A stretch of DNA of 63,922 bases, filler included, from Candidatus Woesearchaeota archaeon CG1_02_57_44 (GTDB lineage: Archaea > Nanobdellota > Nanobdellia > Woesearchaeales > CG1-02-57-44): the NCBI GenBank assembly GCA_001871415.1. It is 3 parts of 3 records of this genome, joined end to end, with 100 filler letters (N's around TTAATTAATTAA, not from the genome) between each part and the next. Parts side by side here need not be neighbours in the genome. Positions count along the whole stretch, not along the records: positions 23,162 to 44,039 come from MNWW01000004.1; 2 more parts are not named here. The stretch is one strand, 5' to 3'. Made by a program: the position numbers and the translations under genes. Under the pieces are notes generated by a model. It was not told the DNA's origin, made no database searches, and was given only the letters and a program-made list of their open reading frames with translations. Shown here in pieces: positions 14,216 through 27,791 of this stretch (position 1 is its first letter; every line of letters starts with the position of its first letter).

Positions 14216-15137
14216 GCGGCATCACCGTCAATGCTGATGGCCGGACGCGATGATGAAGCACCCGTTGCGCATCATAGCTCACCACGGTCTCCCCCTCACG
14301 CTGCGGGAAGTCAGGTCGCATACCAAAAGCGAGCGCATCACGATAATCCTCACGACGCAGACCACCGACCTGATAGCAATAGTGATGTGCCCTCCGCTGC
14401 GCCGCCACATCTTCGGATGCTAGTGCCTGCTGGATGTCGCAGCCAAAGAACTCCTGGAAGGGGGCAGCTCCATAGATAGTGGGGATGAATGTCGGGACCC
14501 AGAACGAAGGCGGCAGAAAGTCTATCCGCATAAGATCCGTCGGGACGCCACATTCATCGATCACCATCCGTTCGGCATAGCCATCCCATGCCTTTCGCTC
14601 CACATCGATGATGCCGGCGATATGCTGCTTGCCTCGCAATGCTTCTTCACCCGCCACCCTCTCGCCAGCAAGAAGGCAACAGACATAATCACGTACCTCA
14701 CCAATCCTCTCGTCCTGCAGTATAGTCCTTTGCAGCGTAGCCACAATGGCATCCTTGGATACATGCGCACCGGCGACTATGTGCAGCTCGGCTGCGAACA
14801 GGACATCATCCAGGAACGGATAGTATGGTGAAGGTGACGGCGCAGACTGCTGCGCATTGATGAGGCACCCTATCAATTGCTCGGAAGCTGCGCCATCCAA
14901 GTGAAGGTATATGCGCATGAGATACGGCTTCCATGCAGGGAGCAACGCTCTGCCGGCATACCCCCACAGCCCTGCGTCCTCTTCGTAGCTCCAGCACTGC
15001 TCCCAGCAGTCCTGGACAGTCACCGTGCCATCATTGATAGCGTCAGCGAACTGCTGTGCCAGCAGCACATCAAGGTCGGACTGGCGCAAGGAGGACATGA
15101 GGATGCGTTCGTCAGGGAAGACGGCAGAATCACTCAC
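14208..15137 (-). CDS. RQSD-motif paralog C (type 2), unknown helical protein
   Basis: LRQSDLDVLLAQQFADAINDGTVTVQDCWE...YYPFLDDVLFAAE...LHHRV; GGAGG RBS before GTG 15137, overlapping the upstream stop. Confidence 0.8.
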   Translation of the reverse strand: MSDSAVFPDERILMSSLRQSDLDVLLAQQFADAINDGTVTVQDCWEQCWSYEEDAGLWGYAGRALLPAWKPYLMRIYLHLDGAASEQLIGCLINAQQSAPSPSPYYPFLDDVLFAAELHIVAGAHVSKDAIVATLQRTILQDERIGEVRDYVCCLLAGERVAGEEALRGKQHIAGIIDVERKAWDGYAERMVIDECGVPTDLMRIDFLPPSFWVPTFIPTIYGAAPFQEFFGCDIQQALASEDVAAQRRAHHYCYQVGGLRREDYRDALAFGMRPDFPQREGETVVSYDAQRVLHHRVRPSALTVMPHD

Positions 15138-16194
15138 GAAAATCCCTCCAGGAGACAATATTTGCCATGGTGATATCCCGTCCCGAGCCGGGCGTGTAGC
15201 CAAAAGGATATCGCATGGCATACCTCATGCAGATGAGCTCGAATGTCCAGAGACCTTGCATACTGAGTCTTAGGTCGCGGTCGGGATTCGGCACAGGGCA
15301 TCCCTTTGGCAGCTTCGATCCGGTCATGAGATGATCAAGGACGCGATAGGACCACTCCGCCTCCTCCAGCGCGCGCCCGTACAGACACTCGCTGACCGGA
15401 TACGGAAGCGGAGGGAAGAGCGTATGCGTATCGTCGACCACAGGGACCTTCAGGTCCAGGGAGATACGAGGTTCCGGAGGAGGACGATGAGACGTCCCGC
15501 TCGGGCTTGTCGATTCATCTGCGCCTGGTAGAGAATGCAGGAAATGATAGATTGATCCAGGGACATCCCGATAGGACGAATCATCCGATAGGAGGTCCGA
15601 AGCCATGAGGAGCGGGAAACACCGCACCCACCCTGCGGGAAAATATTTCTGAGACGCCCTTTGGATGCGCCCGGCAATCATGCCGCTGTTCTGGGCGACC
15701 ATCGCGGTCGTGCCAGCGTCAGCAAGCCTGCTTGCGTGGTACATCCAGAAGTCAGGTTGGCGGGCAGCCCAATCTGGCCCGCCCAGGATAGCATGGACTA
15801 GTTCTCTGGAAAGGGGCCCGAAGGGAGCTGGTGCGACAAGCGCGGCACCTTGCAGACTCGTGAGATAGGGATTGAAGATCCTGTCAGCACCGGATTGCCA
15901 ATCCGCGAGAAGCCGTGATGCCAGGGCATCTGCGACTTCGTGGTCCAGAAGTCCTCGGGCAGGCAGGAGGACGTGCAACCATCCTGCATGGAACACCTTC
16001 CTCTGGCAGCCGTAGAAATCAGGAAGCGCAACACCCCACAGGTGATCGCAGCAATCCTCCACAGCTATCTCACCAGTATTGAGTGCATCAGCGAACTGCT
16101 GTGCCAGCAGCACCTCAAGGTCGGACTGGCGGATGGGTGCGAGAGATTCATCTGCTGAAGGCAGCCCTTGCGCACGTTCATGCTCAGGGCGCAT
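15130..16194 (-). CDS. RQSD-motif paralog D (type 1), unknown helical protein
   Basis: IRQSDLEVLLAQQFADALNTGEIAVEDC...FNPYLTSLQGAALVAPAP...FWMYHASRLAD; GGAGGT RBS before ATG 16194. Confidence 0.8.
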   Translation of the reverse strand: MRPEHERAQGLPSADESLAPIRQSDLEVLLAQQFADALNTGEIAVEDCCDHLWGVALPDFYGCQRKVFHAGWLHVLLPARGLLDHEVADALASRLLADWQSGADRIFNPYLTSLQGAALVAPAPFGPLSRELVHAILGGPDWAARQPDFWMYHASRLADAGTTAMVAQNSGMIAGRIQRASQKYFPAGWVRCFPLLMASDLLSDDSSYRDVPGSIYHFLHSLPGADESTSPSGTSHRPPPEPRISLDLKVPVVDDTHTLFPPLPYPVSECLYGRALEEAEWSYRVLDHLMTGSKLPKGCPVPNPDRDLRLSMQGLWTFELICMRYAMRYPFGYTPGSGRDITMANIVSWRDFRE

Positions 16195-17176
16195 CGTTGC
16201 CACCTCCCTGAGCTGAAAGGACGCGATGGTGCAGTGCCGCAAGGACCTGCTGATGCAGCCCCCGGTACGCCCCCTCTGGTGATACGGGTGCATGACGCAG
16301 CGCCTCGAGGGCTTCGCGGCAGTAGGATTCCGGCACATCCTCGCTTCGGGCGGCTCGCTCCAGCAGGTGATACGTCCCGGGATTTGCTTTTGCGATCAGG
16401 GCTGCCGCATCGGCCAATGCAGGAGCCGCGAAGACCTGTCCCCGGCAGGGCTCTGTCTCGCGGTGGAAGGTTTCCGTGAGACCGGTGAGCGATTCCCAGT
16501 CTCCCTTCCCGAATGCCCCCATGCCCGCGTGGTGCGGCCAGCCGCCGTTGCTGATGAGCACATGAGGATCCGATGGTGCGTGATAGCCCTTGAGCACATG
16601 ACTATCATAGGAAGTTGACCTATCAATCCCGTCGAAGAACACCTCAGCCGTGTGAACCAGCAGCGCGTCGCGCTGCTGCCATCGCCCGAGGCGATCGTAC
16701 TGCGTGTCCTCATTGTACATGAGGTCAGCGATGAGATGCACGCGGGCATCGTTGAAGTAATCCACGATGCGCGGTGTCATGGACACGACCTTGCCGAGTC
16801 CTCCGTTCACTTCTGCTCCGAGCAGGAAATCGCCGAGAAGCGGATGATATGCATCCAACGCAGCCCCGCTGTCCAGATATGGCCCGCAGAGCCTCTCGAC
16901 CAGCGCCCCTCCTGTCACCGCATCCATCAGCGTCGACGCGTGCAGCAGCGGCCGACGCAGCGCTGGAAGCACAAGGCGATGCGCCTCGCCAAAGCTCGTG
17001 TCCTCGAAGGTGAGGAAGTGCTCCCAAAGGTCATTGAGAGTGACTGCCGGCGTAGGTGAACCATCCTCAAGCGCGCAGGGATATCCCTTGACCGCGTCAG
17101 CCATCATGCAGCCTTGCATCACTTCAGCGTCAGAGCCGCGCATCCGGGTGCAAAAGCCATTCCACTCAGGCATCAT
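16184..17176 (-). CDS. RQSD-motif paralog E (type 2), unknown helical protein
   Basis: MRGSDAEVMQGCMMADAVKG..VTLNDLWE...YHPLLGDFLLGAE...LHHRV; ATGA overlap with the NACHT gene stop and a GGAGG RBS. Confidence 0.75.
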   Translation of the reverse strand: MMPEWNGFCTRMRGSDAEVMQGCMMADAVKGYPCALEDGSPTPAVTLNDLWEHFLTFEDTSFGEAHRLVLPALRRPLLHASTLMDAVTGGALVERLCGPYLDSGAALDAYHPLLGDFLLGAEVNGGLGKVVSMTPRIVDYFNDARVHLIADLMYNEDTQYDRLGRWQQRDALLVHTAEVFFDGIDRSTSYDSHVLKGYHAPSDPHVLISNGGWPHHAGMGAFGKGDWESLTGLTETFHRETEPCRGQVFAAPALADAAALIAKANPGTYHLLERAARSEDVPESYCREALEALRHAPVSPEGAYRGLHQQVLAALHHRVLSAQGGGNDAP

Positions 17177-19401
17177 GTCCCTCCTGCTGCCTTGCGCGCC
17201 GCGATGATCTGCGGGATACCCCACCCTTCCGCCAGACGCGCTTCAAGCACAGCTTCAGGAACACCCTGAGGAAACTCCAATGCCTGCAACAACGCCAGCG
17301 TCCCTTGGCGATGCAGCATCTTCTGGACATGCGGTTCCCTGGCTGTTTCATACGCTCTTCGTCGCTGGGCTCTCAATGCTTCTGGCTCACCGTCAGGAGC
17401 ATGCTGCAATCTCCTGAGACGCTGATAGTCCCGATTGGTCGGGTTCTTCAGCATGTCATGCTCAAGCAGACTGAATCCAAGGCCGCGAAGGTAGATGGAA
17501 GTTGGATTCGGATGGTCATCAAGGAAATCCGGATCCTCCTGCGCAACCTTTACCAGCGAGTACAGGCGCAGATAATTCTGCCGGAAGACAGGATCCTGGT
17601 TGTCCAGCACATGCCTGAACCAACGACGCTTCCCTGCGTCCTGCCAACGCGCGGCGATATACGTATCCAGACTTCCCATGATATGCTCGGTGTCGATGTC
17701 AAGCACCTGATAGCGACCGCTTGCGCTGTCAAGCCCGAGAGGCCTCGTGGTGACGATCACCTTGCCGGGCATCCGCTGCATCGCGTCAAGAAGCAGCGCT
17801 TGGAATTCAGGCGATTCGTCCAGCCCGTCTATCATCGTGACGAGCTGATAGTCATCGCGCAAGGTCGCCGGCAAAGCATCCCACTTACCCGAAAGATGCG
17901 CAACCAGAGCCGCGGTGCTGATTCCCTGCCCGTGGCTCTCCAGATCCGCGCTCAGGTCTCGCGCGATGACGAGATTGGCGACGTATCCCGGACGGGCATT
18001 GACATCCCGTACGAGCTCTGTCATAAGGATGCTCTTGCCTGAGCCCATCTCAGCCTGGATGATCGTCGGCACGTTCTGGTCGAGGATGTCCTCGACAGAC
18101 ACCGGTCGCACATCATAGGTCCGCGCTCCTGATGGGACAAGCACCTGCTCCATGATGTGCCCCTCCGGCCGCTTACCATTGGCATTGCGCACCAGTTGAT
18201 CGTAGCTGAGATTCAGCAGTCTGGCCCGGGCCGATACTGTCCTCTCGGTATACTCGCCCAGCTGTCGCGGATCATTCGTGTAGCGCATATCCTCATCAGC
18301 AGCCACGTGGATGATCTCGCCGCGCACCTTGGGCTTGGGCCTGCGCATGATGTTGATGGTATGCTGGTCTTCCTGATGATACAGCCATGAGAGAGCAGCA
18401 TCGAGCGTTCCACTGGGGAGCACGATATCGACAACCCTTCCCTGTATCACGTCATGCAACGGGCCGGCGAGCAAATCCATGAACTCGTACGTGCGCATGG
18501 CCATCATGATGCGGTTCTCTGAGATGGGCAGGCCTTGCTCGTGTGCGGCGTACGCAGGATCTTTCATGCCAGCGAGCCGGGCTTCGGTCCGTTCGAAGTC
18601 ATGGATGGCATCTTGTTCACTCTTTCCTTTCTGCACGACGCGTCGTATGTATTCAGGCTTGAAGGCGTCCCATTGGGCCTGCAGAGCATCTCGTTCGACT
18701 CCCTCAGGAAACCAGCTGGGATGCCGCTCAGGCCAGAGCTCGGCGTCTCGCTGGTACATGGTGCGAAGCAGGGGCGTGGGTATGATGCCGCGCTCCACGC
18801 AGAGGCCAATCAAGGCGATGTAATAGGAATGATCAACCGTATGGTGCACCGCGATATCTCGCTGTACCTTGAGCGCCATCGCGTCTAGACGCTCTTGCAG
18901 GTCATGATCATCAGGAAAATACATGCACAGCGCATCATCCATGGTGCGCAGCGCGTCAGCGACGACAACAACATCTGGCGCGCGTGCCAGGTATGGTTTC
19001 ACTGCGTCTGGCGCCCTCTCCGGAGCCCCGTAGTGCTCGATGCCGGCTGCCTGCTGCTCAACCAACCTCTTGCCGGTCTCATCAAGCATCGAGCCCTGCA
19101 CGCCCGTGCGCAGGTGTGCGGCATTGGTGTCGGTCTGCGCATGCGTGCGGAAGGTCAGCCAGGTATGGATTCCTTCAGGAAGCTCATGTCGTGGCGAGGC
19201 ATAGTGTGCGCTTGTCATCAGTTGCTCTAGTCCCTGCGCGCCCAGCTGGTTGAGCTCAAAGAAGAAGCCGGCAGAATCCGGCATGATGACATTCCCTTGC
19301 TGACGGCAGGGGAAACGAAAGACATTGTGCTCATACTGGCGCAGCTGCTCCTGCACAACCGCGCTGTCAAGGACCGGTGCGTTATAGTGCTGGAAAGTCA
19401 T
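17173..19401 (-). CDS. NACHT/STAND NTPase with N-terminal degenerate histidine-phosphatase-like domain and no repeat sensor
   Basis: Walker A AEMGSGKS, Walker B VTMIDGLDE, sensor-1 VIVTTRP. N-terminal FRTHAQTDTN...MLDETG...ALRT...VLPSGTLDA parallels the His-phosphatase motif order. Confidence 0.8.
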   Translation of the reverse strand: MTFQHYNAPVLDSAVVQEQLRQYEHNVFRFPCRQQGNVIMPDSAGFFFELNQLGAQGLEQLMTSAHYASPRHELPEGIHTWLTFRTHAQTDTNAAHLRTGVQGSMLDETGKRLVEQQAAGIEHYGAPERAPDAVKPYLARAPDVVVVADALRTMDDALCMYFPDDHDLQERLDAMALKVQRDIAVHHTVDHSYYIALIGLCVERGIIPTPLLRTMYQRDAELWPERHPSWFPEGVERDALQAQWDAFKPEYIRRVVQKGKSEQDAIHDFERTEARLAGMKDPAYAAHEQGLPISENRIMMAMRTYEFMDLLAGPLHDVIQGRVVDIVLPSGTLDAALSWLYHQEDQHTINIMRRPKPKVRGEIIHVAADEDMRYTNDPRQLGEYTERTVSARARLLNLSYDQLVRNANGKRPEGHIMEQVLVPSGARTYDVRPVSVEDILDQNVPTIIQAEMGSGKSILMTELVRDVNARPGYVANLVIARDLSADLESHGQGISTAALVAHLSGKWDALPATLRDDYQLVTMIDGLDESPEFQALLLDAMQRMPGKVIVTTRPLGLDSASGRYQVLDIDTEHIMGSLDTYIAARWQDAGKRRWFRHVLDNQDPVFRQNYLRLYSLVKVAQEDPDFLDDHPNPTSIYLRGLGFSLLEHDMLKNPTNRDYQRLRRLQHAPDGEPEALRAQRRRAYETAREPHVQKMLHRQGTLALLQALEFPQGVPEAVLEARLAEGWGIPQIIAARKAAGGT

Positions 19402-19516
19402 GGGCAGTCTCCGTGTTGTTCATCGCGCCTCACCGGCACAGGTGTTGGTTCCAGCCGGCCCGATTCCGGATTCTGGCGGACTCCGACACCACCTGAAAGG
19501 GAGAAATAGCCCGCGG

Positions 19517-19525
19517 TTTATAAAA
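19517..19525 (-). promoter_or_regulatory. Putative TATA box for the NACHT/paralog operon
   Basis: TTTTATAAA on the minus strand in the 183-bp gap between the two NACHT genes. Confidence 0.5.
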
Positions 19526-19584
19526 GATGTAGCAGGTGAGTACGAAAGTAGTAGCGTCAGATCATGCCTGCGCCATCGCTCCTG

Positions 19585-22500
19585 TCACATCTGTTCTGGA
19601 CGCGCATCTGCGCTGAGGAATTCCGTATTATCCACTGGTTTCCAGAGTCCATCGTGCGCGCGGATGTCATACGCCATGAACAGGCTACGGGACGATTTGC
19701 CTGCTTCGATGGCCTGCTCCTCAAGGCCCATGAGTCTATAGGTCGTGCTTAGCTCGTGCTGTGTCCTCGCGGCGCCAAGGTAATTGTCTATCTGCTGCCA
19801 GATGCTGTCCGCGACCATCAGGTGATGTATCGCATGATCAAGCTTTCCCTGCGCACGCTGTGCCTTCGCGAGTTGCACATGGCAGTAGGCAGCGCGGCGA
19901 GGGAAGTAGACCTGCTGGCTCACGTTCAGGGCCAGGTGAGCAAGCTCTTCCGACTCTTCGAAGTCCCCCATGCGCTCGCTGATGCAGGACAACCCGAGGT
20001 AGCACTCGGCTACGCCGCGCAGGTAATGCTGCTCCTCGAGAACCGGGAGAGCGAAGGAATAGAGGCGTTCTGCTTCTCCAAGGTGCTGGAGGTCCGGTGA
20101 GTCATCCTTGGTCCTGCCCCAATTGTGCAGATGTATCTCTGCCAGCTGGATCTTGCATCGCGCCGCGTTACGATCATCGTCCTTGCTGCGGACAGAGCCA
20201 CGGCCATCACCTGAGAAGAACCCATGACATTCCTTGTAGATGTCCCATGCCGCGCGGGCACCATTGATGGCCTTGATGACCAGCGCGTATTCGAACAAGG
20301 CCAGGTAGTAGTCTGTCCCCCTCGTCTCGGAGAAGAGCTGCAGCGCTGTCTGGAAGTGGTCTGCTGCGAGCTGCTGCGAGTTGCAGAGCCGAAAGGACCT
20401 GCCCAGCTGGACGTGCGCCTGCGCCGCGAGCCATGGACGAACATCCTCTTGCTCGAGCACCTCGCTGAAGCTGGCAGCTGCCAGGCGATAGTGCTCGGTG
20501 TTGTAGTGGATGAGGCCAAGACGGTAGTAGGCGAGGTCTGGCGGCGCACTCTCCAGAACCAGGTCAGAGAGATAGCCGAAGCGGGATGCGGCACTGGTGC
20601 GCGGGGCGAACGATGCGATCGTCTTGATGGCGTACGCGCGCACCGTATCGAGCGGCATGATGTTCTCCAGCAGAGGTGCGAGAAGGTTGCGCACCAGGTC
20701 AAGCGACACCGCTGGCATCTCGGGAAGGCTCGCGACGAGCGGCTCGAATCGCTCCTGCTCGGCCAGGTCCAGGAGCAGCGATGCATCCCCTGTCAGGCCG
20801 ATATAATAGGGCATGGCAGACTCATGGGAGATAGTTCCCGGGTTGAGTGCGCGCTTCTCGGTGATGGCATGGCGGGCGAGCAGATAATCCTGCCAGCTCA
20901 GATGCAGGAAGCGTGGCCCTCGACGAGTGGTATGAATCAGACGTGATGACATGCCGGGAGGAACGCTCATATCACCGAGCGTGAAGTCCCAGGCGATGGC
21001 AGCGAGCCGGCGTTTCGTGGAGGAGACCTCTGCGTAGAGCTTGTTGGGGCTGAGCAACTGCCCTTTCTCGCTGAGGACATCCTCAAAGACCTGTGCTGTG
21101 AGCGCGCCTTCCATGACCAGCCCCTTGGTGATAGGGATCTCACCGCGGAACGCGCGCACCGCGATATGCCTGATGCTCTCCACATCGATGCAGCGCAGGA
21201 GCTGGAAGGGATCCTCATGCACCAGTTCGCTGAGCAACGCAAGGGTCTGGTAATGGCCGCTCACCGTGTAGTGGCAGGCGCTCAGGCGTCGTTGGATCTG
21301 ACCGGCCAGGGAGCATTCATCGGCAGGATCACCCGGAAAATGGCTTGTGACGAATGAACCGACGTTGCTTGAGATGCTACGCCGGTCGATGGAGTGAGCA
21401 GAGAAGCCAGGGACTGCATCAGGACGTTTATTGAGCTCAAAGGGCCTCGCGAATGCCACGACCTTGTGCCCCTCCGCGCAGATCTGCGATAGTCCTTCTC
21501 GCATCGGCTCCAGGAGGGGGGGACTGCAATCATGCAAATCATCGATAAGGAACAGGTAGCGCAGGTCCAAGGGCGCGCCGGGCGGCATCGTGCAGGACCA
21601 TCGAGCCTGGCCTGATGCGCGTCGCAGGAGATAGTCACGCATCCGGTCGCCGTCCTCAGGTATCCCGAAACGCAGCTCATCATTGAGCTCCTCGGCCGTG
21701 AGCGTGACCAGGGCGTATCCTTTTGTCTGTGGATACAGGCCCATCTCATGGTCGAGCACGATCTTGGTCCTCAGCCAGGTCTTTCCGGTTCCCGGATGCC
21801 CATAGATGAGGACAGGCACCTGCATGGCCAAAAGCTGCTCCAGGGCAATGCCTTGCCGTCCTGCCTCAGTGCCGACCACCTGAAGCGGGATCTCCGAGAA
21901 GAAATGGGCGCTGTAGCGGGCGTGTTCCTCAGAAGTGCGATCAGAGGGGAAGAGCGGCGAGTGCTGGACGCGCATATCCAGGGAGCGACGAAGGGCCCTG
22001 CGGGCATCATTGCCCGCGTTGGCTGTGAGACCCCGACCATACGCGGGATCATTGAGCCAGAGTAGTGCAGGATTCACCTTGCAGCAGACCCGCTCTCCTC
22101 TGTGGTCGGGCTTGTCGCGCATGCTGACCTGCGCGGCCTGCGGCGCCAGTCTATGACGGAAATATGAGAACGCCCCGTCCAAAAACCCGCTCGGGATGAT
22201 GAAGTGCACATCCTGGCCTTCCAGGGACGCCATGACCTGCGGGGACGAGAACATGCCAAGGACCTGATAAGCGCGATGGGCCATCAGGAATCTGTTCTCG
22301 CTCAGCACATGACCTTCGTGCTCCAGGGTGGTCATGATATCGCCAGAGGCCTTGATGTGCGATTCGATGATGCCATAGAGATCCTGCGCGTCACGCAAAG
22401 CCATGCCAGACTCCCTGCAGCCAGCGACATACCATTGCTTGAAGTTCTGCCATTTGCGCAATGATGCGTCACGCTCGTCTGACCCCTCCGGAAAGATGCT

Positions 22501-23061
22501 ATAGTGATGGACAGGCCAGAGTTCGCTGGGACCCCCGCAGACCGTGCGCAGTCCGGAGGTGACAAGGACATTCCGGTCAAGGCAGAGTCCGGCGAGGGAC
22601 ACATAGTCATCGAGGGATATCCGGCGATGAGCATCATGGTGCGCATCGATACGCAGGGCCATCTCGCGCAATTGGGCGCGAAGCTCCTCATCATGAGGAT
22701 GCGAGAGCAAGAGGGCATAGTGCATGGTGCGCAGCGAATCAGCCGCCATCAGCAGCGCAGGGCGTTGTTGCATGATGGCCGCCTCATGGAGCGCGTGCGC
22801 CTCGCCAGCTGTGTCGAGCATCGTGCCCTGAAGGCCGGTGCGCTCGCCCTTGGTGTTCGTGCGCGTCGGACCGTGGGTATAGAACACGAAATGGGAATGT
22901 ACATTGGGCTCAAGCTCTCGGGGTTCGGGGAGTTGCTCTTGCAGCGCATGCTCCAGCAGCTGACCCATCCAGTCCTTGCTCCTCTTGATGAGCTCAAAGA
23001 AGAAATCATGAGGGTCATACGTCGTTCCTTCGACAGGGAACCTGAAATCATTCCGGCGGAA
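19585..23061 (-). CDS. NLR-like protein: degenerate His-phosphatase-like domain + NACHT + TPR repeats (5' truncated at contig end)
   Basis: Walker A GHPGTGKT, atypical Walker B FLIDDLHD, NACHT winged-helix motif FLHLSWQDYL and TPR-like tail (AYYRLGLIHY, AHVQLGRSF, AECYLGLS, ARTQHELS). The frame stays open upstream of 22968 to the gap and still aligns with the paralog (NDFRFP...DFFFEL). Confidence 0.85.
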   Translation of the reverse strand, partial: FRRNDFRFPVEGTTYDPHDFFFELIKRSKDWMGQLLEHALQEQLPEPRELEPNVHSHFVFYTHGPTRTNTKGERTGLQGTMLDTAGEAHALHEAAIMQQRPALLMAADSLRTMHYALLLSHPHDEELRAQLREMALRIDAHHDAHRRISLDDYVSLAGLCLDRNVLVTSGLRTVCGGPSELWPVHHYSIFPEGSDERDASLRKWQNFKQWYVAGCRESGMALRDAQDLYGIIESHIKASGDIMTTLEHEGHVLSENRFLMAHRAYQVLGMFSSPQVMASLEGQDVHFIIPSGFLDGAFSYFRHRLAPQAAQVSMRDKPDHRGERVCCKVNPALLWLNDPAYGRGLTANAGNDARRALRRSLDMRVQHSPLFPSDRTSEEHARYSAHFFSEIPLQVVGTEAGRQGIALEQLLAMQVPVLIYGHPGTGKTWLRTKIVLDHEMGLYPQTKGYALVTLTAEELNDELRFGIPEDGDRMRDYLLRRASGQARWSCTMPPGAPLDLRYLFLIDDLHDCSPPLLEPMREGLSQICAEGHKVVAFARPFELNKRPDAVPGFSAHSIDRRSISSNVGSFVTSHFPGDPADECSLAGQIQRRLSACHYTVSGHYQTLALLSELVHEDPFQLLRCIDVESIRHIAVRAFRGEIPITKGLVMEGALTAQVFEDVLSEKGQLLSPNKLYAEVSSTKRRLAAIAWDFTLGDMSVPPGMSSRLIHTTRRGPRFLHLSWQDYLLARHAITEKRALNPGTISHESAMPYYIGLTGDASLLLDLAEQERFEPLVASLPEMPAVSLDLVRNLLAPLLENIMPLDTVRAYAIKTIASFAPRTSAASRFGYLSDLVLESAPPDLAYYRLGLIHYNTEHYRLAAASFSEVLEQEDVRPWLAAQAHVQLGRSFRLCNSQQLAADHFQTALQLFSETRGTDYYLALFEYALVIKAINGARAAWDIYKECHGFFSGDGRGSVRSKDDDRNAARCKIQLAEIHLHNWGRTKDDSPDLQHLGEAERLYSFALPVLEEQHYLRGVAECYLGLSCISERMGDFEESEELAHLALNVSQQVYFPRRAAYCHVQLAKAQRAQGKLDHAIHHLMVADSIWQQIDNYLGAARTQHELSTTYRLMGLEEQAIEAGKSSRSLFMAYDIRAHDGLWKPVDNTEFLSADARPEQM

Positions 23062-23161: not shown

Positions 23162-23423
23162 AGGAGAACGAAAGCGGATAAGGACGCAACCATCAGAAGA
23201 ACATCGCGCCCATGAGCATGGAACAAAGGAATTCGGGGAAGGCGAAGCGTGTCCGGAATACAGGCGCACACGCTTATCTTGCAGCGTCGCCCCACCAGAC
23301 CCCATGCAAAAGGATTATGTACCTCAAGCACCAAAATCCCTTTCGTCGCGGTGCAACAACAGGCAACTTCGCTCAGAACCCTCTAGAAGAATAAAAACAA
23401 AAAACAGAATATTTATCAGCAAA

Positions 23424-23467: not shown

Positions 23468-23486
23468 GATTGCCTTCCGTGCCCCT

Positions 23487-24725
23487 ATGCTCCAGACAAT
23501 AAGCATCGAGAACTTCCTATCCATACGAGACAAGCTCACGCTCAGCCTTGAGGCCAGCGCCAGCAAGAAGAACCTGCAGAACACCATAGCCCTGCCCAAG
23601 AAGGATCGGCTGCTCAGGAGCGTCGCGCTCTACGGCGCCAATGCCTCAGGAAAATCCAACATCATCAAAGCGACGCTATTCATCTGGGACATGGTGAAGA
23701 ACTCGCATGCCTTCAATATCGACAGTACCATCCCAAGGACGCCATACAAACTCGACGAGGCATGGGCGGGCAAACTCAGCAGATTCGAGCTGACATTCTA
23801 TCATAAGAGGATACGGTACAGATACGGATTCTCCTGTGATGACAAGAAAATAATCGATGAATACCTCTACCATTGGCCAAAGGGCAGGGAAGCACTCATC
23901 TTCAAACGGAGCTCAACCACGGACTTCACCTTCATCAAAGACAAGCGCCAACAACAGCTCATCAAGAAGAGGCTCACCCCCAATGTCCTCTATCTTTCCA
24001 GAGCGACCGCCCTGGGCCTGAAGGCCACTGCGCCCGCCTATGCATTCATAACCGACAACCTCGTCATCAACTATTCTCCGACATGGTTCGTCTACACCGC
24101 GCAGAAAATCAAGGAAGATCCTGCACTCAAGACCAGGGTCCTGGGCATCCTGGCCAAGGCAGACTTCGGAGGCATCCAGGACATCATGGTGAGTACGGAG
24201 AAGAAGAAGGTCGATGGCGTGGAATTCAGGATAGAGAAGCAGAGGAAGATATTCAACCATCTTGTCCAGGAAGAAAGGGAATTCAACGAGTTGAAGACCA
24301 TACACACCACAGCCAAAGGCAAACACCTCACCTTCAGTCTCAAGGAGGAGTCGGAGGGGACCCAGAAGATAATCTCCCTGCTCGGACCCCTCTTTGACGC
24401 CTTGGACAATGGAAAAGTCGCCATCATCGACGAGCTGGAATCGAGCCTGCACCCCAACCTCACCAGGTCGCTCATCCGGCTCTTCAACAGCAGAAAGAAC
24501 ACGAAAGGCGCCCAGCTCATCTTCACGACCCATAGCACGACGCTCCTTGACAACCGGCTCTTCAGGAGAGACCAGATCTATCTCTGCACCAAGGCGCCCA
24601 ACAAGCAGACACTGCTCAGATCATTCCTTGACTATGACCTCAGAGAGGACTCAGACTTCGAACGCGCATACCTGAACGGGCGGCTAGGAGGCGTGCCGAT
24701 AATAGACCAGACCCTCCTTGATTAA
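23487..24725 (+). CDS. AAA_21/RloA (AbiLi-like) ABC-type ATPase
   Basis: Motifs IENFLSI, Walker A YGANASGKSN, signature EESEGT, Walker B IIDELESSLHP, QLIFTTH and YLNGRLGGVP. Confidence 0.92.
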   Translation: MLQTISIENFLSIRDKLTLSLEASASKKNLQNTIALPKKDRLLRSVALYGANASGKSNIIKATLFIWDMVKNSHAFNIDSTIPRTPYKLDEAWAGKLSRFELTFYHKRIRYRYGFSCDDKKIIDEYLYHWPKGREALIFKRSSTTDFTFIKDKRQQQLIKKRLTPNVLYLSRATALGLKATAPAYAFITDNLVINYSPTWFVYTAQKIKEDPALKTRVLGILAKADFGGIQDIMVSTEKKKVDGVEFRIEKQRKIFNHLVQEEREFNELKTIHTTAKGKHLTFSLKEESEGTQKIISLLGPLFDALDNGKVAIIDELESSLHPNLTRSLIRLFNSRKNTKGAQLIFTTHSTTLLDNRLFRRDQIYLCTKAPNKQTLLRSFLDYDLREDSDFERAYLNGRLGGVPIIDQTLLD

Positions 24726-24726
24726 G

Positions 24727-25329
24727 ATGGCACGGCAACGCGGCTACCTATCCACACGCACGGTCTGGATATTCTGCGAAGGAACGACAGAACGCCTTTA
24801 CTTCGAAAAGCATCGGGTCGCAGAGCGGCTCTCAAGGCTACGCATCGAGGTCCAGCGGAGCAGGCGAACGGACGTCGAAGGAATCATCCACTACGCAGTC
24901 AACTACAGGAAATCAAACAGCCGCGACTTCCAGAAGGACGATCTCGTCTTCTGCGTCTTTGACTGCGATCAGAGCACAGAAGAACAGCTGCAGCGCTGCG
25001 AAAAACTCGCGAAAGATAATGGCATCATCCCAATCTACTCGAACCCATCGTTCGAGTACTGGCTCCTCTGCCACTTCGGGTATCACCCAGACTACTACTC
25101 CCAGACGGCCCTGATGCAGAAACTCAGAGAGCACCTTCCCGGATACGAGAAGGTTGATCCCAACACCTACGATCATATCAAGGAACGGCAACACCAAGCC
25201 ATAGCCAATGCCGAAAAAATATTGCGAGCACACCGCGGGGCAGGAACGCATATCCTAAGTACGAAGTGCAACCCGGTGACGCTCGTGCACCAATTGATGG
25301 AAACGATACAAGAGCTGCCGAAAGGATAG
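24727..25329 (+). CDS. RloB-family (TOPRIM-like, AbiLii-like) protein
   Basis: Motifs IFCEGTTERLYF, FCVFDCD, SNPSFEYWLLCHF and NPVT; directly downstream of the AAA ATPase. Confidence 0.92.
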   Translation: MARQRGYLSTRTVWIFCEGTTERLYFEKHRVAERLSRLRIEVQRSRRTDVEGIIHYAVNYRKSNSRDFQKDDLVFCVFDCDQSTEEQLQRCEKLAKDNGIIPIYSNPSFEYWLLCHFGYHPDYYSQTALMQKLREHLPGYEKVDPNTYDHIKERQHQAIANAEKILRAHRGAGTHILSTKCNPVTLVHQLMETIQELPKG

Positions 25330-25775
25330 AGACCTGTCCTCACGTCCCCACCTCCATGCGGAGGCATCATCTATCCAGCAGAACCCGCCCACAAGAGGAA
25401 AGAAATACCATATCTCAGCGAAGAAGGTCCATGACACTAAGCGTCGCAACCTCGCTGAGAGTGCGTCATGCAGCACCCTCCTCGTATCAGCGAGCAGATG
25501 GAAGAGCACGCATGATATCATCCGCGGCGTCATGGTGACGACATAGTTGGGCTCGATGACGAGGCTATGGTCATCGTTGGCCGTCGACAGAAGGCATCTT
25601 TAGCGCGTCAAAACGCATTTTTGGTGAGCAACTCGTCGCGACGAGCGAAAAAGGCTTGCTGCAAGAAGCAACAAGCAAGATCTGGGCGTACCAACGAATC
25701 AAAAGATACGGCGAATCGTAGCGAGAGCTACGTCTCAATCTCAGGAGTTATGCAACACAGCATAAACAAATACAA

Positions 25776-25794
25776 AATTTCTACTATTGTAGAT
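25776..25794 (+). other. Solitary Cas12a (type V-A)-like repeat 3' handle; not an array
   Basis: AATTTCTACTATTGTAGAT (TCTAC-TATT-GTAGA stem) matches the Cas12a crRNA handle consensus. One copy only and no cas genes in the window. Confidence 0.55.
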
Positions 25795-25895
25795 ATCGCA
25801 ACCCTGCAAAAAGATGCACACTTGCACTGGAAAAGGCCGCACAGGAACGGATGATGCAACACTGCTATGCAAGGAGTGCTGACGACTCCGCTCCA

Positions 25896-26579
25896 TCATG
25901 CCTCAGGATTGTCCCTGCGCGTAGTGGAAAGGCGCGTCCTGCTTCTCCAGACATGCAGACTATGCGTGAGCAGACCCTTCATCGTGCCAAACGAGCGGTA
26001 GTGCCACCATGGACGGGTATCGGGTCCTGTCTTCTGCACCATGAGCATGTTCCTGGGAACATTGCCGACGCGACGATAGTTGCTCTTATCGCGCCGTATC
26101 CATGACGCCAGCGTCGCGACGGGCCGCAACTTCACGTCATGGATGACGACAAACCCGCCATGCACCAGCATCAGGTCGATGTAGTAGAAATCCACGAAAG
26201 CCTCGTCGAAGCGATGACCACCGTCGATGAACGCGAAGTCTATCCTCTCACCCTCACGCTGCAGGCGCGGCAGCACCTCGTGGCTGTAGTGCGGCTCAAA
26301 GCGCATGCCACGCGACAGACCAAGACGCCGCACATTCCTGAGCCCCACGTCCGCGTAGCGCTCCTGGAACGGGTCGATGACGATGTGTCTTGCCCCTTTC
26401 AGTCCCTGCTGCGCAGAGAGTATGTGCACGGCCGATGCGCCGTTGGCGAACCCTGTCTCCAGAGACCGACGAAGCCCCTGCTCTTTCACCAAGCCGTAGA
26501 GGAACTCGGCCTCGTGCTCCTTGACGCTCGCTGACGCCGTATCCTCCGGCAGCAGCAATTCCCGGTAGATGCTTCCCAT
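25896..26579 (-). CDS. Class I SAM-dependent methyltransferase (Methyltransf_24-like)
   Basis: Motifs LETGFANGAS, IDPF, FAFIDGGH and GGFVVIHD. Confidence 0.88.
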   Translation of the reverse strand: MGSIYRELLLPEDTASASVKEHEAEFLYGLVKEQGLRRSLETGFANGASAVHILSAQQGLKGARHIVIDPFQERYADVGLRNVRRLGLSRGMRFEPHYSHEVLPRLQREGERIDFAFIDGGHRFDEAFVDFYYIDLMLVHGGFVVIHDVKLRPVATLASWIRRDKSNYRRVGNVPRNMLMVQKTGPDTRPWWHYRSFGTMKGLLTHSLHVWRSRTRLSTTRRDNPEA

Positions 26580-26681
26580 GGACTAAAGAAATGCACAATG
26601 AGTAATAAATATTGAGTATTTTCAGCGCCCCGCATGATAGACAGGAAGCAAGCAGTGTGGACACAGACTCTTCCACACCCA

Positions 26682-27791
26682 TCACGGCAGCATCGCCTTT
26701 ACGAGCAGCTTCTCAAACTGCGCTGCCGATATCCTACGCTGCCCCTGCACCGCCCTGCGCTTGAGCAGCATCCGGGGCAGGCCCCAGAGCGATGATACTT
26801 TCGCCGCGAGCAGGACGTGCAGCTTGAACATCTTGGTGTAACGGATAATCTCGCCCAGCTGCACCAGCAGGATCTGATGCAGATGGCGCCATATCACGGG
26901 CGCGGGCCAGTCCTTGACCACGACCCAGAGCTCGTTCCTGCGGCCGTAAAAGATGGCCCTGTTCCTGACCTTCTTGCTGGACGCGCCGTGGATGTGGTCT
27001 AATACCGCGTCAGAAGCATACGCCATCGTATATCCTGCCAGACGGATGCGCAATCCCAGGTCAAGGTCCTCGGAATACAGGTGGAAATCCTCGTCGAGCA
27101 GGCCGCCGGGGAGTGTATCGAGCACTGTCTTTCGATACAGCACAGCCACGCCGCAAGGGCTCAGCACCAGATCCGCCTCCTCTTCCCTGCGCACATCCCA
27201 GGCAAGACCGCAGCCATACACCTTATGGCCAAGCGTGTCGATAGAGCCGTCCATGAGCAGCGTCTTGGCCGCCACCATGCCCACAGCAGCGTCGCGCATC
27301 GGAGCGAGCATTGCCTTGAGGAATCCCTTGTGCAGCACGGTGTCATTGTTGAGCAGCAGAACAAAATCCCCTCGCGCCGCCCTGATGCCGTCATTGTTGC
27401 CTCCGGCGTAGCCGCGGTTGGTCGCGTTGCGGATCACGCGCACCCATGGAAACTCCCTTGCCACGGCATCGGCAGAGCCGTCAACGCTGGCGTTGTCCAC
27501 AAAGATGACCTCATAGGTCACGCGCGCCCTGCCTGACGCTGACGCGCGCCCTGCTCTCTTGACGCCCTTGGCATCCCGAAACCCTGGCGCCGCCCCGCGG
27601 TCCGCGTCAACGCACCGCGCGTCCTGCGCCTGTATGGAGCGCAGGCAGTTACCATTGAGCTCCTTGCCGTTCCAGTTGACGATGATGATGGAGAGGGATG
27701 GACGAAGCAATCGGCCCCCTCTTTTCGCGCCAGATAAACCCTCGCCCGCCTCGCGCTTCCCTCGCATCTGCTTCTGCGCCATACCCTGCAT
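26682..27791 (-). CDS. GT2-family glycosyltransferase
   Basis: Motifs SIIIVNWN, VDNASVDGS, NRGYAGGNN, LLLNND and YSEDLDL. Start uncertain; carries a low-complexity insert. Confidence 0.9.
   Translation of the reverse strand: MQGMAQKQMRGKREAGEGLSGAKRGGRLLRPSLSIIIVNWNGKELNGNCLRSIQAQDARCVDADRGAAPGFRDAKGVKRAGRASASGRARVTYEVIFVDNASVDGSADAVAREFPWVRVIRNATNRGYAGGNNDGIRAARGDFVLLLNNDTVLHKGFLKAMLAPMRDAAVGMVAAKTLLMDGSIDTLGHKVYGCGLAWDVRREEEADLVLSPCGVAVLYRKTVLDTLPGGLLDEDFHLYSEDLDLGLRIRLAGYTMAYASDAVLDHIHGASSKKVRNRAIFYGRRNELWVVVKDWPAPVIWRHLHQILLVQLGEIIRYTKMFKLHVLLAAKVSSLWGLPRMLLKRRAVQGQRRISAAQFEKLLVKAMLP

Follow-up and report, generated by a model that had tools for sequence, protein, structure and literature searches.

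A lone type V-A repeat handle bordering an IS remnant in a Woesearchaeales archaeon, probably left from a lost Cas12a locus

A lone repeat handle of the type V-A (Cas12a-family) kind in the genome of Candidatus Woesearchaeota archaeon CG1_02_57_44 is probably the inert leftover of a lost Cas12a locus, clipped at its 5' end by an insertion sequence (IS). The window, the whole 63,922-nucleotide stretch of DNA that we analysed, consists of three contigs (C33, C36 and C37) joined by runs of N, so only positions 23162-44039, from C36, are physically linked to the handle, which is at position 2615 of that contig. The assembly has 1.53 Mb in 77 contigs with 57% GC and is 82% complete; genomes in the order range from 0.6 to 2.7 Mb. 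A sequence-only reading had offered three explanations, a relic of a lost V-A array, a single-guide mini-array, and a crRNA-like regulator tied to the neighbouring genes, and had also mentioned RNA anti-CRISPRs. The relic is the best supported of the three, and we think it likely to be right. No target was found for a mini-array, and the viral context of an RNA anti-CRISPR is lacking. The element joins a known class of orphan V-A repeat remnants. As a relic, it would be a further trace of how CRISPR-Cas12a is gained and lost, and would show, as a minor addition, that V-A systems are rare in these small-genome archaea (10 of 401 genomes) and leave lone repeats there.

The handle and the V-A systems of the order

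The handle is intact and present in a single copy. It occupies positions 25776-25794 on the plus strand, where the earlier reading had placed it, and has the sequence AATTTCTACTATTGTAGAT, made up of AATT, a 5-bp stem and a 4-nt loop. This agrees with the 19-nt V-A handle (AATTTCTAC-loop-GTAGAT, with a 5-bp stem), and the predicted fold has the same stem and loop. All 19 nt are identical to the array handles of two genomes of the same order (G157 and G202), and the loop is the one used by V-A arrays of the order. The claim that there is no second copy also held: the handle was the sole match in the window even with up to three mismatches (shuffle mean of 0.03), an exact match occurred once genome-wide, and the next-best site in the genome had 3 mismatches over the 16 constrained positions. 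Rfam, at the gathering threshold, gave no match in the window.

The handle is no assembly artefact, because contigs of four sequencing runs carry it intact. Single contigs from runs X1, X3 and X4 span the handle with no difference within it, and a contig from run X10 covers 25761-25911; X1 and X3 are possible source runs of the assembled DNA. The handle is also unchanged in a 98%-identical allele, but that allele has only 7 differences over 25713-27015 and is therefore uninformative on this point. Farther along the contig, positions 27016-27225, in a glycosyltransferase gene, have dense allelic differences and several short variant contigs, and are a patch of recombination or paralog exchange.

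V-A systems occur in the order. Cas12a scored above the cut-off in 10 of 401 genomes (12 at E 0.001), a tally that, along with that of IS homology in relatives, is the only one to include the unpublished genomes G273 and G315. The earlier reading would have been refuted by the lack of Cas12a from this genome and its relatives; none was found in this genome within the data searched, but some relatives have it. The handle pattern was found in 13 of the 401 genomes. Nine of these have arrays, all nine encode cas12a, and the other four (this genome, G147, G163 and G390) have one copy each. In G390 (L069:6362-6397) and G163 (L070:5999-6034), the single copy is a lone 36-nt repeat with a canonical GTCTAG start, lying between ordinary genes, and neither genome (one contig and four contigs, respectively) gave a Cas12a match. 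Canonical lone repeats are thus found in 2 of about 390 Cas12a-less genomes of the order. A further orphan unit, with two repeats and one spacer, is in G321 (L072:5900-6017), 300 kb from the V-A locus of that genome. Among the array ends listed, the handle of the last repeat is intact in 5 of 7, which makes an intact end the normal state in the order. This stands beside a published comparison in which terminal V-A repeats were disrupted in 11 of 14 bacteria (PMC6610086), a point against a relic with a perfect handle.

A chance match to the handle is expected to be rare, as had been claimed. Markov models (order 3-7) predicted 7e-5 to 1.4e-4 copies per genome when the 3-nt loop was left free and 5e-6 to 1.4e-5 copies when one base was left free, or about 1e-4 to 1e-5 overall. 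Canonical lone repeats (2/~390) occur at a rate 50-500 times higher than this expectation, indicating that real lone repeats are far commoner than chance would make them in this genome. Under coincidence, the sequence of the handle would have arisen by accident in an AT-rich hairpin that lies between convergent genes. Such a hairpin might be the terminator of the minus-strand glycosylation cluster, which ends with a methyltransferase gene (Methyltransf_24, 25896-26579, minus strand) whose stop codon is 101 nt from the handle, and the IS would have landed there because the DNA is AT-rich. Consistent with this, the hairpin read on the minus strand is followed by a T-rich run, and there is no canonical repeat start. 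A reversed control pattern matched 3 of 401 genomes, as compared to 4 with a single true match, showing that loose matches do arise by chance in the order; the single, non-canonical match in G147 looks like one. In L108, from an unrelated bacterium, a lone match of 24 nt precedes dnaK, and scanning many windows will yield some chance matches. Weighed against these points are the low expectation and a loop equal to that in arrays of the order, and we regard coincidence as rather improbable. We favour the relic because the chance expectation is to be set against a real source of V-A repeats in the lineage (Cas12a in 10/401 genomes, arrays in 9/401), and because G390 and G163 keep lone full repeats without Cas12a.

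We found no cas gene anywhere in this genome, in an assembly that is 82% complete, which extends the earlier claim for the window alone. Family models PF18510, TIGR04330, PF01867 (Cas1), PF18516 (RuvC_1) and PF07282 (Cas12f/TnpB) had no match in the genome. The blanks for PF18510 and TIGR04330 are weaker taken alone, as the controls for these two also gave no match; TIGR04330 matched none of 14 control genomes, but did match 10 genomes of the order. Searches by tblastn with the Cas12a, Cas12a3-like, Cas1, Cas2 and Cas4 proteins of relatives returned no cas protein match in the genome (one Cas4 match had E 0.086). With a leader profile built on 9 loci of the order, the genome gave no match, and a genome scan for regularly spaced repeats found only one irregular tandem, on C7. 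Whereas a V-A locus would have at least two repeats with spacers and a leader, here there is one copy genome-wide. The cas12a genes of the order have 24-37% GC, as compared to 57% for this genome, and with completeness at 82%, binning could have lost cas genes.

The IS5-type remnant and the proposed loss of the locus

The handle is bordered by a remnant of an IS5-type element that the sequence-only reading had missed when it called the gap non-coding. Positions 25548-25721 (plus strand) are the 3' end of a decayed DDE transposase gene; the fragment is interrupted by an in-frame stop (25557-25559) and has 70-73% identity over 56 aa to transposases of two relatives. Positions 25748-25762 (plus strand) are the terminal inverted repeat on the transposase side, identified by homology and shared ends. 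The order of parts, a DDE transposase C-terminus and then a terminal repeat common to full copies, is that of an IS5-family element, which we liken, as an assumption, to the IS903 group. A full copy in G275 (L025) has DDE_Tnp_1, DDE_Tnp_1_5 and a divergent DUF2080 gene between terminal repeats, and is 74% identical in DNA to the window over 197 nt of the transposase end and terminal repeat. In comparison to such a copy, only the last 215 nt (25548-25762) are left in the window, with the in-frame stop, and the remainder is missing here.

The IS ends at 25762, 13 nt before the handle. This boundary is placed there because homology stops at that position in several genomes, another copy in run X3 also stops there with a loose end, and the contig of one relative begins with the terminal repeat. 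On the other side, IS homology begins abruptly at 25548, indicating a deletion or rearrangement. The 218 nt between rloB and the IS fragment (25330-25547) have no assigned family; there was no Pfam match in the frames tested and no significant match elsewhere in the genome. We considered these nucleotides as a second transposase fragment and the searches gave no support. No target-site duplication was recognised: the genome has three DUF2080-side ends, all of which lack the matching flank, and the other end of the element is missing here. A degenerate second word resembling an IS end is present at 25854-25865 and may be explained by chance.

IS ends of this type favour AT-rich DNA. The genome has five such ends (on C20, C25, C36, C51 and C70), and their outward flanks are mostly AT-rich. 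The outward flanks of 13 IS ends in relatives average 28% GC, and the 32 nt outside the end at 25762 have 19% GC; among the 32-nt windows of the genome, 0.4% have 25% GC or less.

Two other repetitive arrangements were observed. In G388 (L026:1500-2900), a further transposase, different from that of the IS5-type element, lies nested in the end of this element; the terminal fragment left there resembles the remnant in the window, and this nesting is a possible model for the origin of that remnant. In the genome studied here, a dispersed repeat of at least 100 nt is present in four copies (C25:2963, C29:30352, C40:180 and C49:17988) and is unrelated to the IS5-type ends except for one common 10-mer.

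The 13 nt between the IS end and the handle (25763-25775, plus strand), an A-rich stretch, are likely what is left of a repeat's 5' half. The earlier reading had taken a 17-mer as completing a 36-nt repeat. That 17-mer begins inside the IS terminal repeat (25748-25762), to which 4 of its nucleotides belong, so only 13 nt could be repeat. These 13 nt do not have the GT(C/T)TA start seen in array repeats of the order, and there is no full 35-36-nt unit with a G-T-type 5' start, positions 1-4 being in the IS terminus. Against repeats of the order, 3-6 of the 13 positions match; against 9 unselected repeat types, the best match is 8/13 (shuffle P of 0.45). Four Treponema-type V-A repeats match at 11/13, a value that was partly selected for, since they were found by a search that fixed five of the 13 bases; leaving out the selected bases, the fit is 6/8, with P of 0.26 by shuffle and 0.04 by flank composition. 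The 13-nt stretch thus adds little support to the relic.

We infer the following order of events, from the parts that are visible in the DNA. An ancestor would have carried a V-A locus at this site. The IS, favouring AT-rich DNA, would have landed within a repeat, in its A-rich 5' half, and a later deletion would have taken the left side, that is, most of the IS plus any other repeats, leader and cas genes. What survived would be a single clipped repeat with the flank downstream of it, and the "spacer" of the sequence-only reading would then be trailer or ordinary flank. In variants of this scheme, the handle may be a stray of the virus type, or a repeat may have recombined in front of a former target.

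Several observations do not favour a relic. No trace of cas genes or of a leader proves a former locus, and no close relative shows a pre-insertion or cas-bearing allele. The 13-nt remnant fits the repeats of the order poorly, and the handle is perfect while the adjoining IS is decayed. The relatives searched did not include a second genome of the same genus or family. A metagenome scan yielded two contigs only, both from the same population and both with the IS, so no empty site was found, and an RloB scan of genome contigs confirmed no relative. In the congeners of G390 (5) and G163 (1), the matching sites hold neither repeat nor cas locus; most congeners also differ in gene order, and these genomes therefore neither prove nor refute that lone repeats are scars of lost loci.

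Downstream flank, RloA/RloB and possible activity

The putative spacer of the sequence-only reading (25795-25825, plus strand) is likely ordinary flank or array trailer. It contains a weak interrupted hairpin (25798-25825). The earlier reading had suggested searching the 20-28 nt downstream of the handle with a TTTV PAM, and no credible viral or self target came of it. The first 20 nt matched 4 viral contigs, as compared to 0 for the reversed control. The 4 matches are 2 distinct sequences, have no TTTV PAM, end at base 20 and sit on the coding strand of unrelated genes, and so fit neither DNA nor RNA targeting; we rejected them as targets and treated them as chance. Searches of viral contigs with the PAM plus a 14-nt seed, and with the PAM-distal 20-mer, each gave 0 matches, and in BLAST searches of phages and plasmids, the 133 nt beginning at 25763 had no matches other than those with E 0.4-5. 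In the genome itself, the best PAM-proximal run was 7 nt among 57,202 sites, a length reached in 82% of 60 shuffles. Three near-matches on C26 were rejected as targets because they are archaellin coding sequence. C26:4272-9928 holds seven tandem archaellin-like genes beside FlaJ/FlaI-like genes, as read from translations.

Transcription signals for the handle were not apparent. Consensus scans gave a TATA-like hexamer for rloA but none in 25330-25900, and no sigma-70-type site on the plus strand. There was no U-rich terminator behind the guide, unlike viral solitary V-A units, in which a hairpin and T-run terminator follow the guide.

The element could be a working solitary crRNA-like unit or decoy served by a Cas12a-family effector that is unbinned or supplied by a virus, which we consider unlikely. 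Such an effector would process read-through transcripts of rloAB or the IS into one guide or a decoy RNA; the unit, if it proved to be expressed and loaded, would represent a single-guide or decoy RNA encoded on an archaeal chromosome. Points consistent with such a unit are the intact handle with its correct predicted fold, the possible loss of an AT-rich cas12a in binning, and the matches of the 20-nt spacer pattern to viral contigs. Virus-borne solitary units often consist of a handle with just A-rich bases in front. In addition, according to one report, terminal V-A repeats can give active extra crRNAs, a lone repeat with the sequence downstream being able to yield an active crRNA (PMC6610086). 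Set against these points, the assembly has no detected effector, adaptation gene or leader, the region has neither the promoter hexamer nor the terminator, and the viral matches have no PAM and fit no targeting mode. For the lone, intact Cas12a handles on chromosomes of small-genome archaea of this order, this one included, it is improbable that they are working parts, whether through read-through and an unbinned Cas12a or tRNA-cutting Cas12a3-like effector, or as landing pads for regain of a V-A system.

In CRISPR-regulated toxin-antitoxin systems, a crRNA-like RNA guards a toxin module. The sequence-only reading had proposed a crRNA-like regulator of this sort, an antitoxin or repressor, for the RloA/RloB (AbiL-like) genes. 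The defence pair itself was confirmed: an RloA/AbiLi-like AAA ATPase of 413 aa (23484-24725, plus strand) and an RloB/AbiLii-like protein of 200 aa (24727-25329, plus strand) matched AbiLi/AbiLii models in PADLOC (2e-88 and 3e-25), and AAA_21 and RloB in Pfam. They are neighbours of the repeat, and no link to it emerged. Adjacency is all that speaks for regulation: rloB and the handle share a strand, and the handle follows 447 nt downstream. RloB homologs were found in 11 of 401 genomes of the order. At 12 rloB loci outside this genome, which are 26-59% identical homologs and not close orthologs, some of them shorter at contig ends and one (L087) from the unpublished genome G209, the handle was present in 0/12 within about 1.5 kb of flank. 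The tie to RloA/RloB is therefore unsupported, and the motif is not conserved at corresponding loci within the data searched. The rloAB region (C36:1-2200, including the rloA promoter) had no PAM-adjacent seed of at least 6 nt, the handle is separated from rloB by an IS fragment and a deletion junction, and no Cas effector was found. Other lone repeats adjoin mevalonate, tRNA-synthetase or SRP genes. Regulation of RloA/RloB by the handle is already largely refuted, and we consider it very improbable.

The surroundings of the pair vary. The contig of run X4 carries different DNA ahead of rloA, with a junction at 23293, so the upstream flank of the rloAB module differs between strains. On C33 (window 15130-22968, unlinked to the handle), large genes with few Pfam assignments follow one another on the minus strand, including one for 1127 aa with TPR repeats and one for 742 aa with a weak NTPase-type match, the N-terminal parts of which are similar.

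Of the systems described by others, the closest to a relic is in Francisella hispaniensis. One preprint reports that standalone repeats accompany about half of V-A loci, and that F. hispaniensis has a remnant repeat after loss of its V-A locus (10.1101/2023.03.03.530964). As in that account, we have a lone intergenic V-A repeat, no cas12a, and flanking sequence without a conserved target. As the account has it, the loss in F. hispaniensis is proven by a relative that has the same flanking genes and carries cas genes, whereas we found no such relative here; our element also differs from the one described in having an exact handle, an archaeal host, and an IS end that replaces the 5' start of the repeat. 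Viral solitary repeats, including RacrVA1-3, act as RNA anti-CRISPRs according to another report (PMC10651486). Like the units described there, ours is a single, intergenic V-A handle without cas genes. Unlike them, it is not in a virus or plasmid, judged from the nearby genes (C36 has rloAB, the IS fragment and glycosylation genes); consensus scans found no promoter of its own such as viral solitary units have, nor was a terminator found, and the assembly has no matching host system.

The handle is identical to, or one base different from, those of V-A array repeats of G157, G202, G321 and Treponema (L096, L098 and L112). The L112 repeat matches at 29/32 nt, a count that includes the 5 final bases of the 5' half, which the search itself had fixed. 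In contrast to these array repeats, the element has one copy, no leader and no cas genes, and its first 4 positions are the IS terminus. On present evidence, it resembles no active kind: it has the handle, but neither the promoter, the mobile-element setting nor the target. Our literature search found no report of lone V-A repeats in this archaeal group, though supplements may list some.

Several viral units were observed in the course of the searches. In Methanosarcina virus MetMV (MK170447.1; L132:2501-2521), which is recorded as archaeal, an exact V-A handle is intergenic and is followed by hairpins and a T run. Phage units at about 1440-1580 in L065-L068 and about 1460-1570 in L133 have a repeat end (GAAAC, GAAAT or similar) that we take to be type I-like, then, a short distance on, a V-A handle, and continue with about 20 nt and a terminator. 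These could be multi-type RNA anti-CRISPR cassettes.

Two genomes of the order encode a second large effector directly behind cas12a and ahead of the adaptation genes: 1114 aa in G260 (L077:6112-9456) and 1181 aa in G321 (L079:7236-10781). The only solved relatives of these proteins are Cas12a3 structures (E 5e-72 and 3e-69), and by this similarity we regard them as putatively Cas12a3-like. The Cas12a3 systems described in a recent report are bacterial (PMC12851939). The putative Cas12a3-like protein behind cas12a in two genomes of the order is a more promising lead than the handle.
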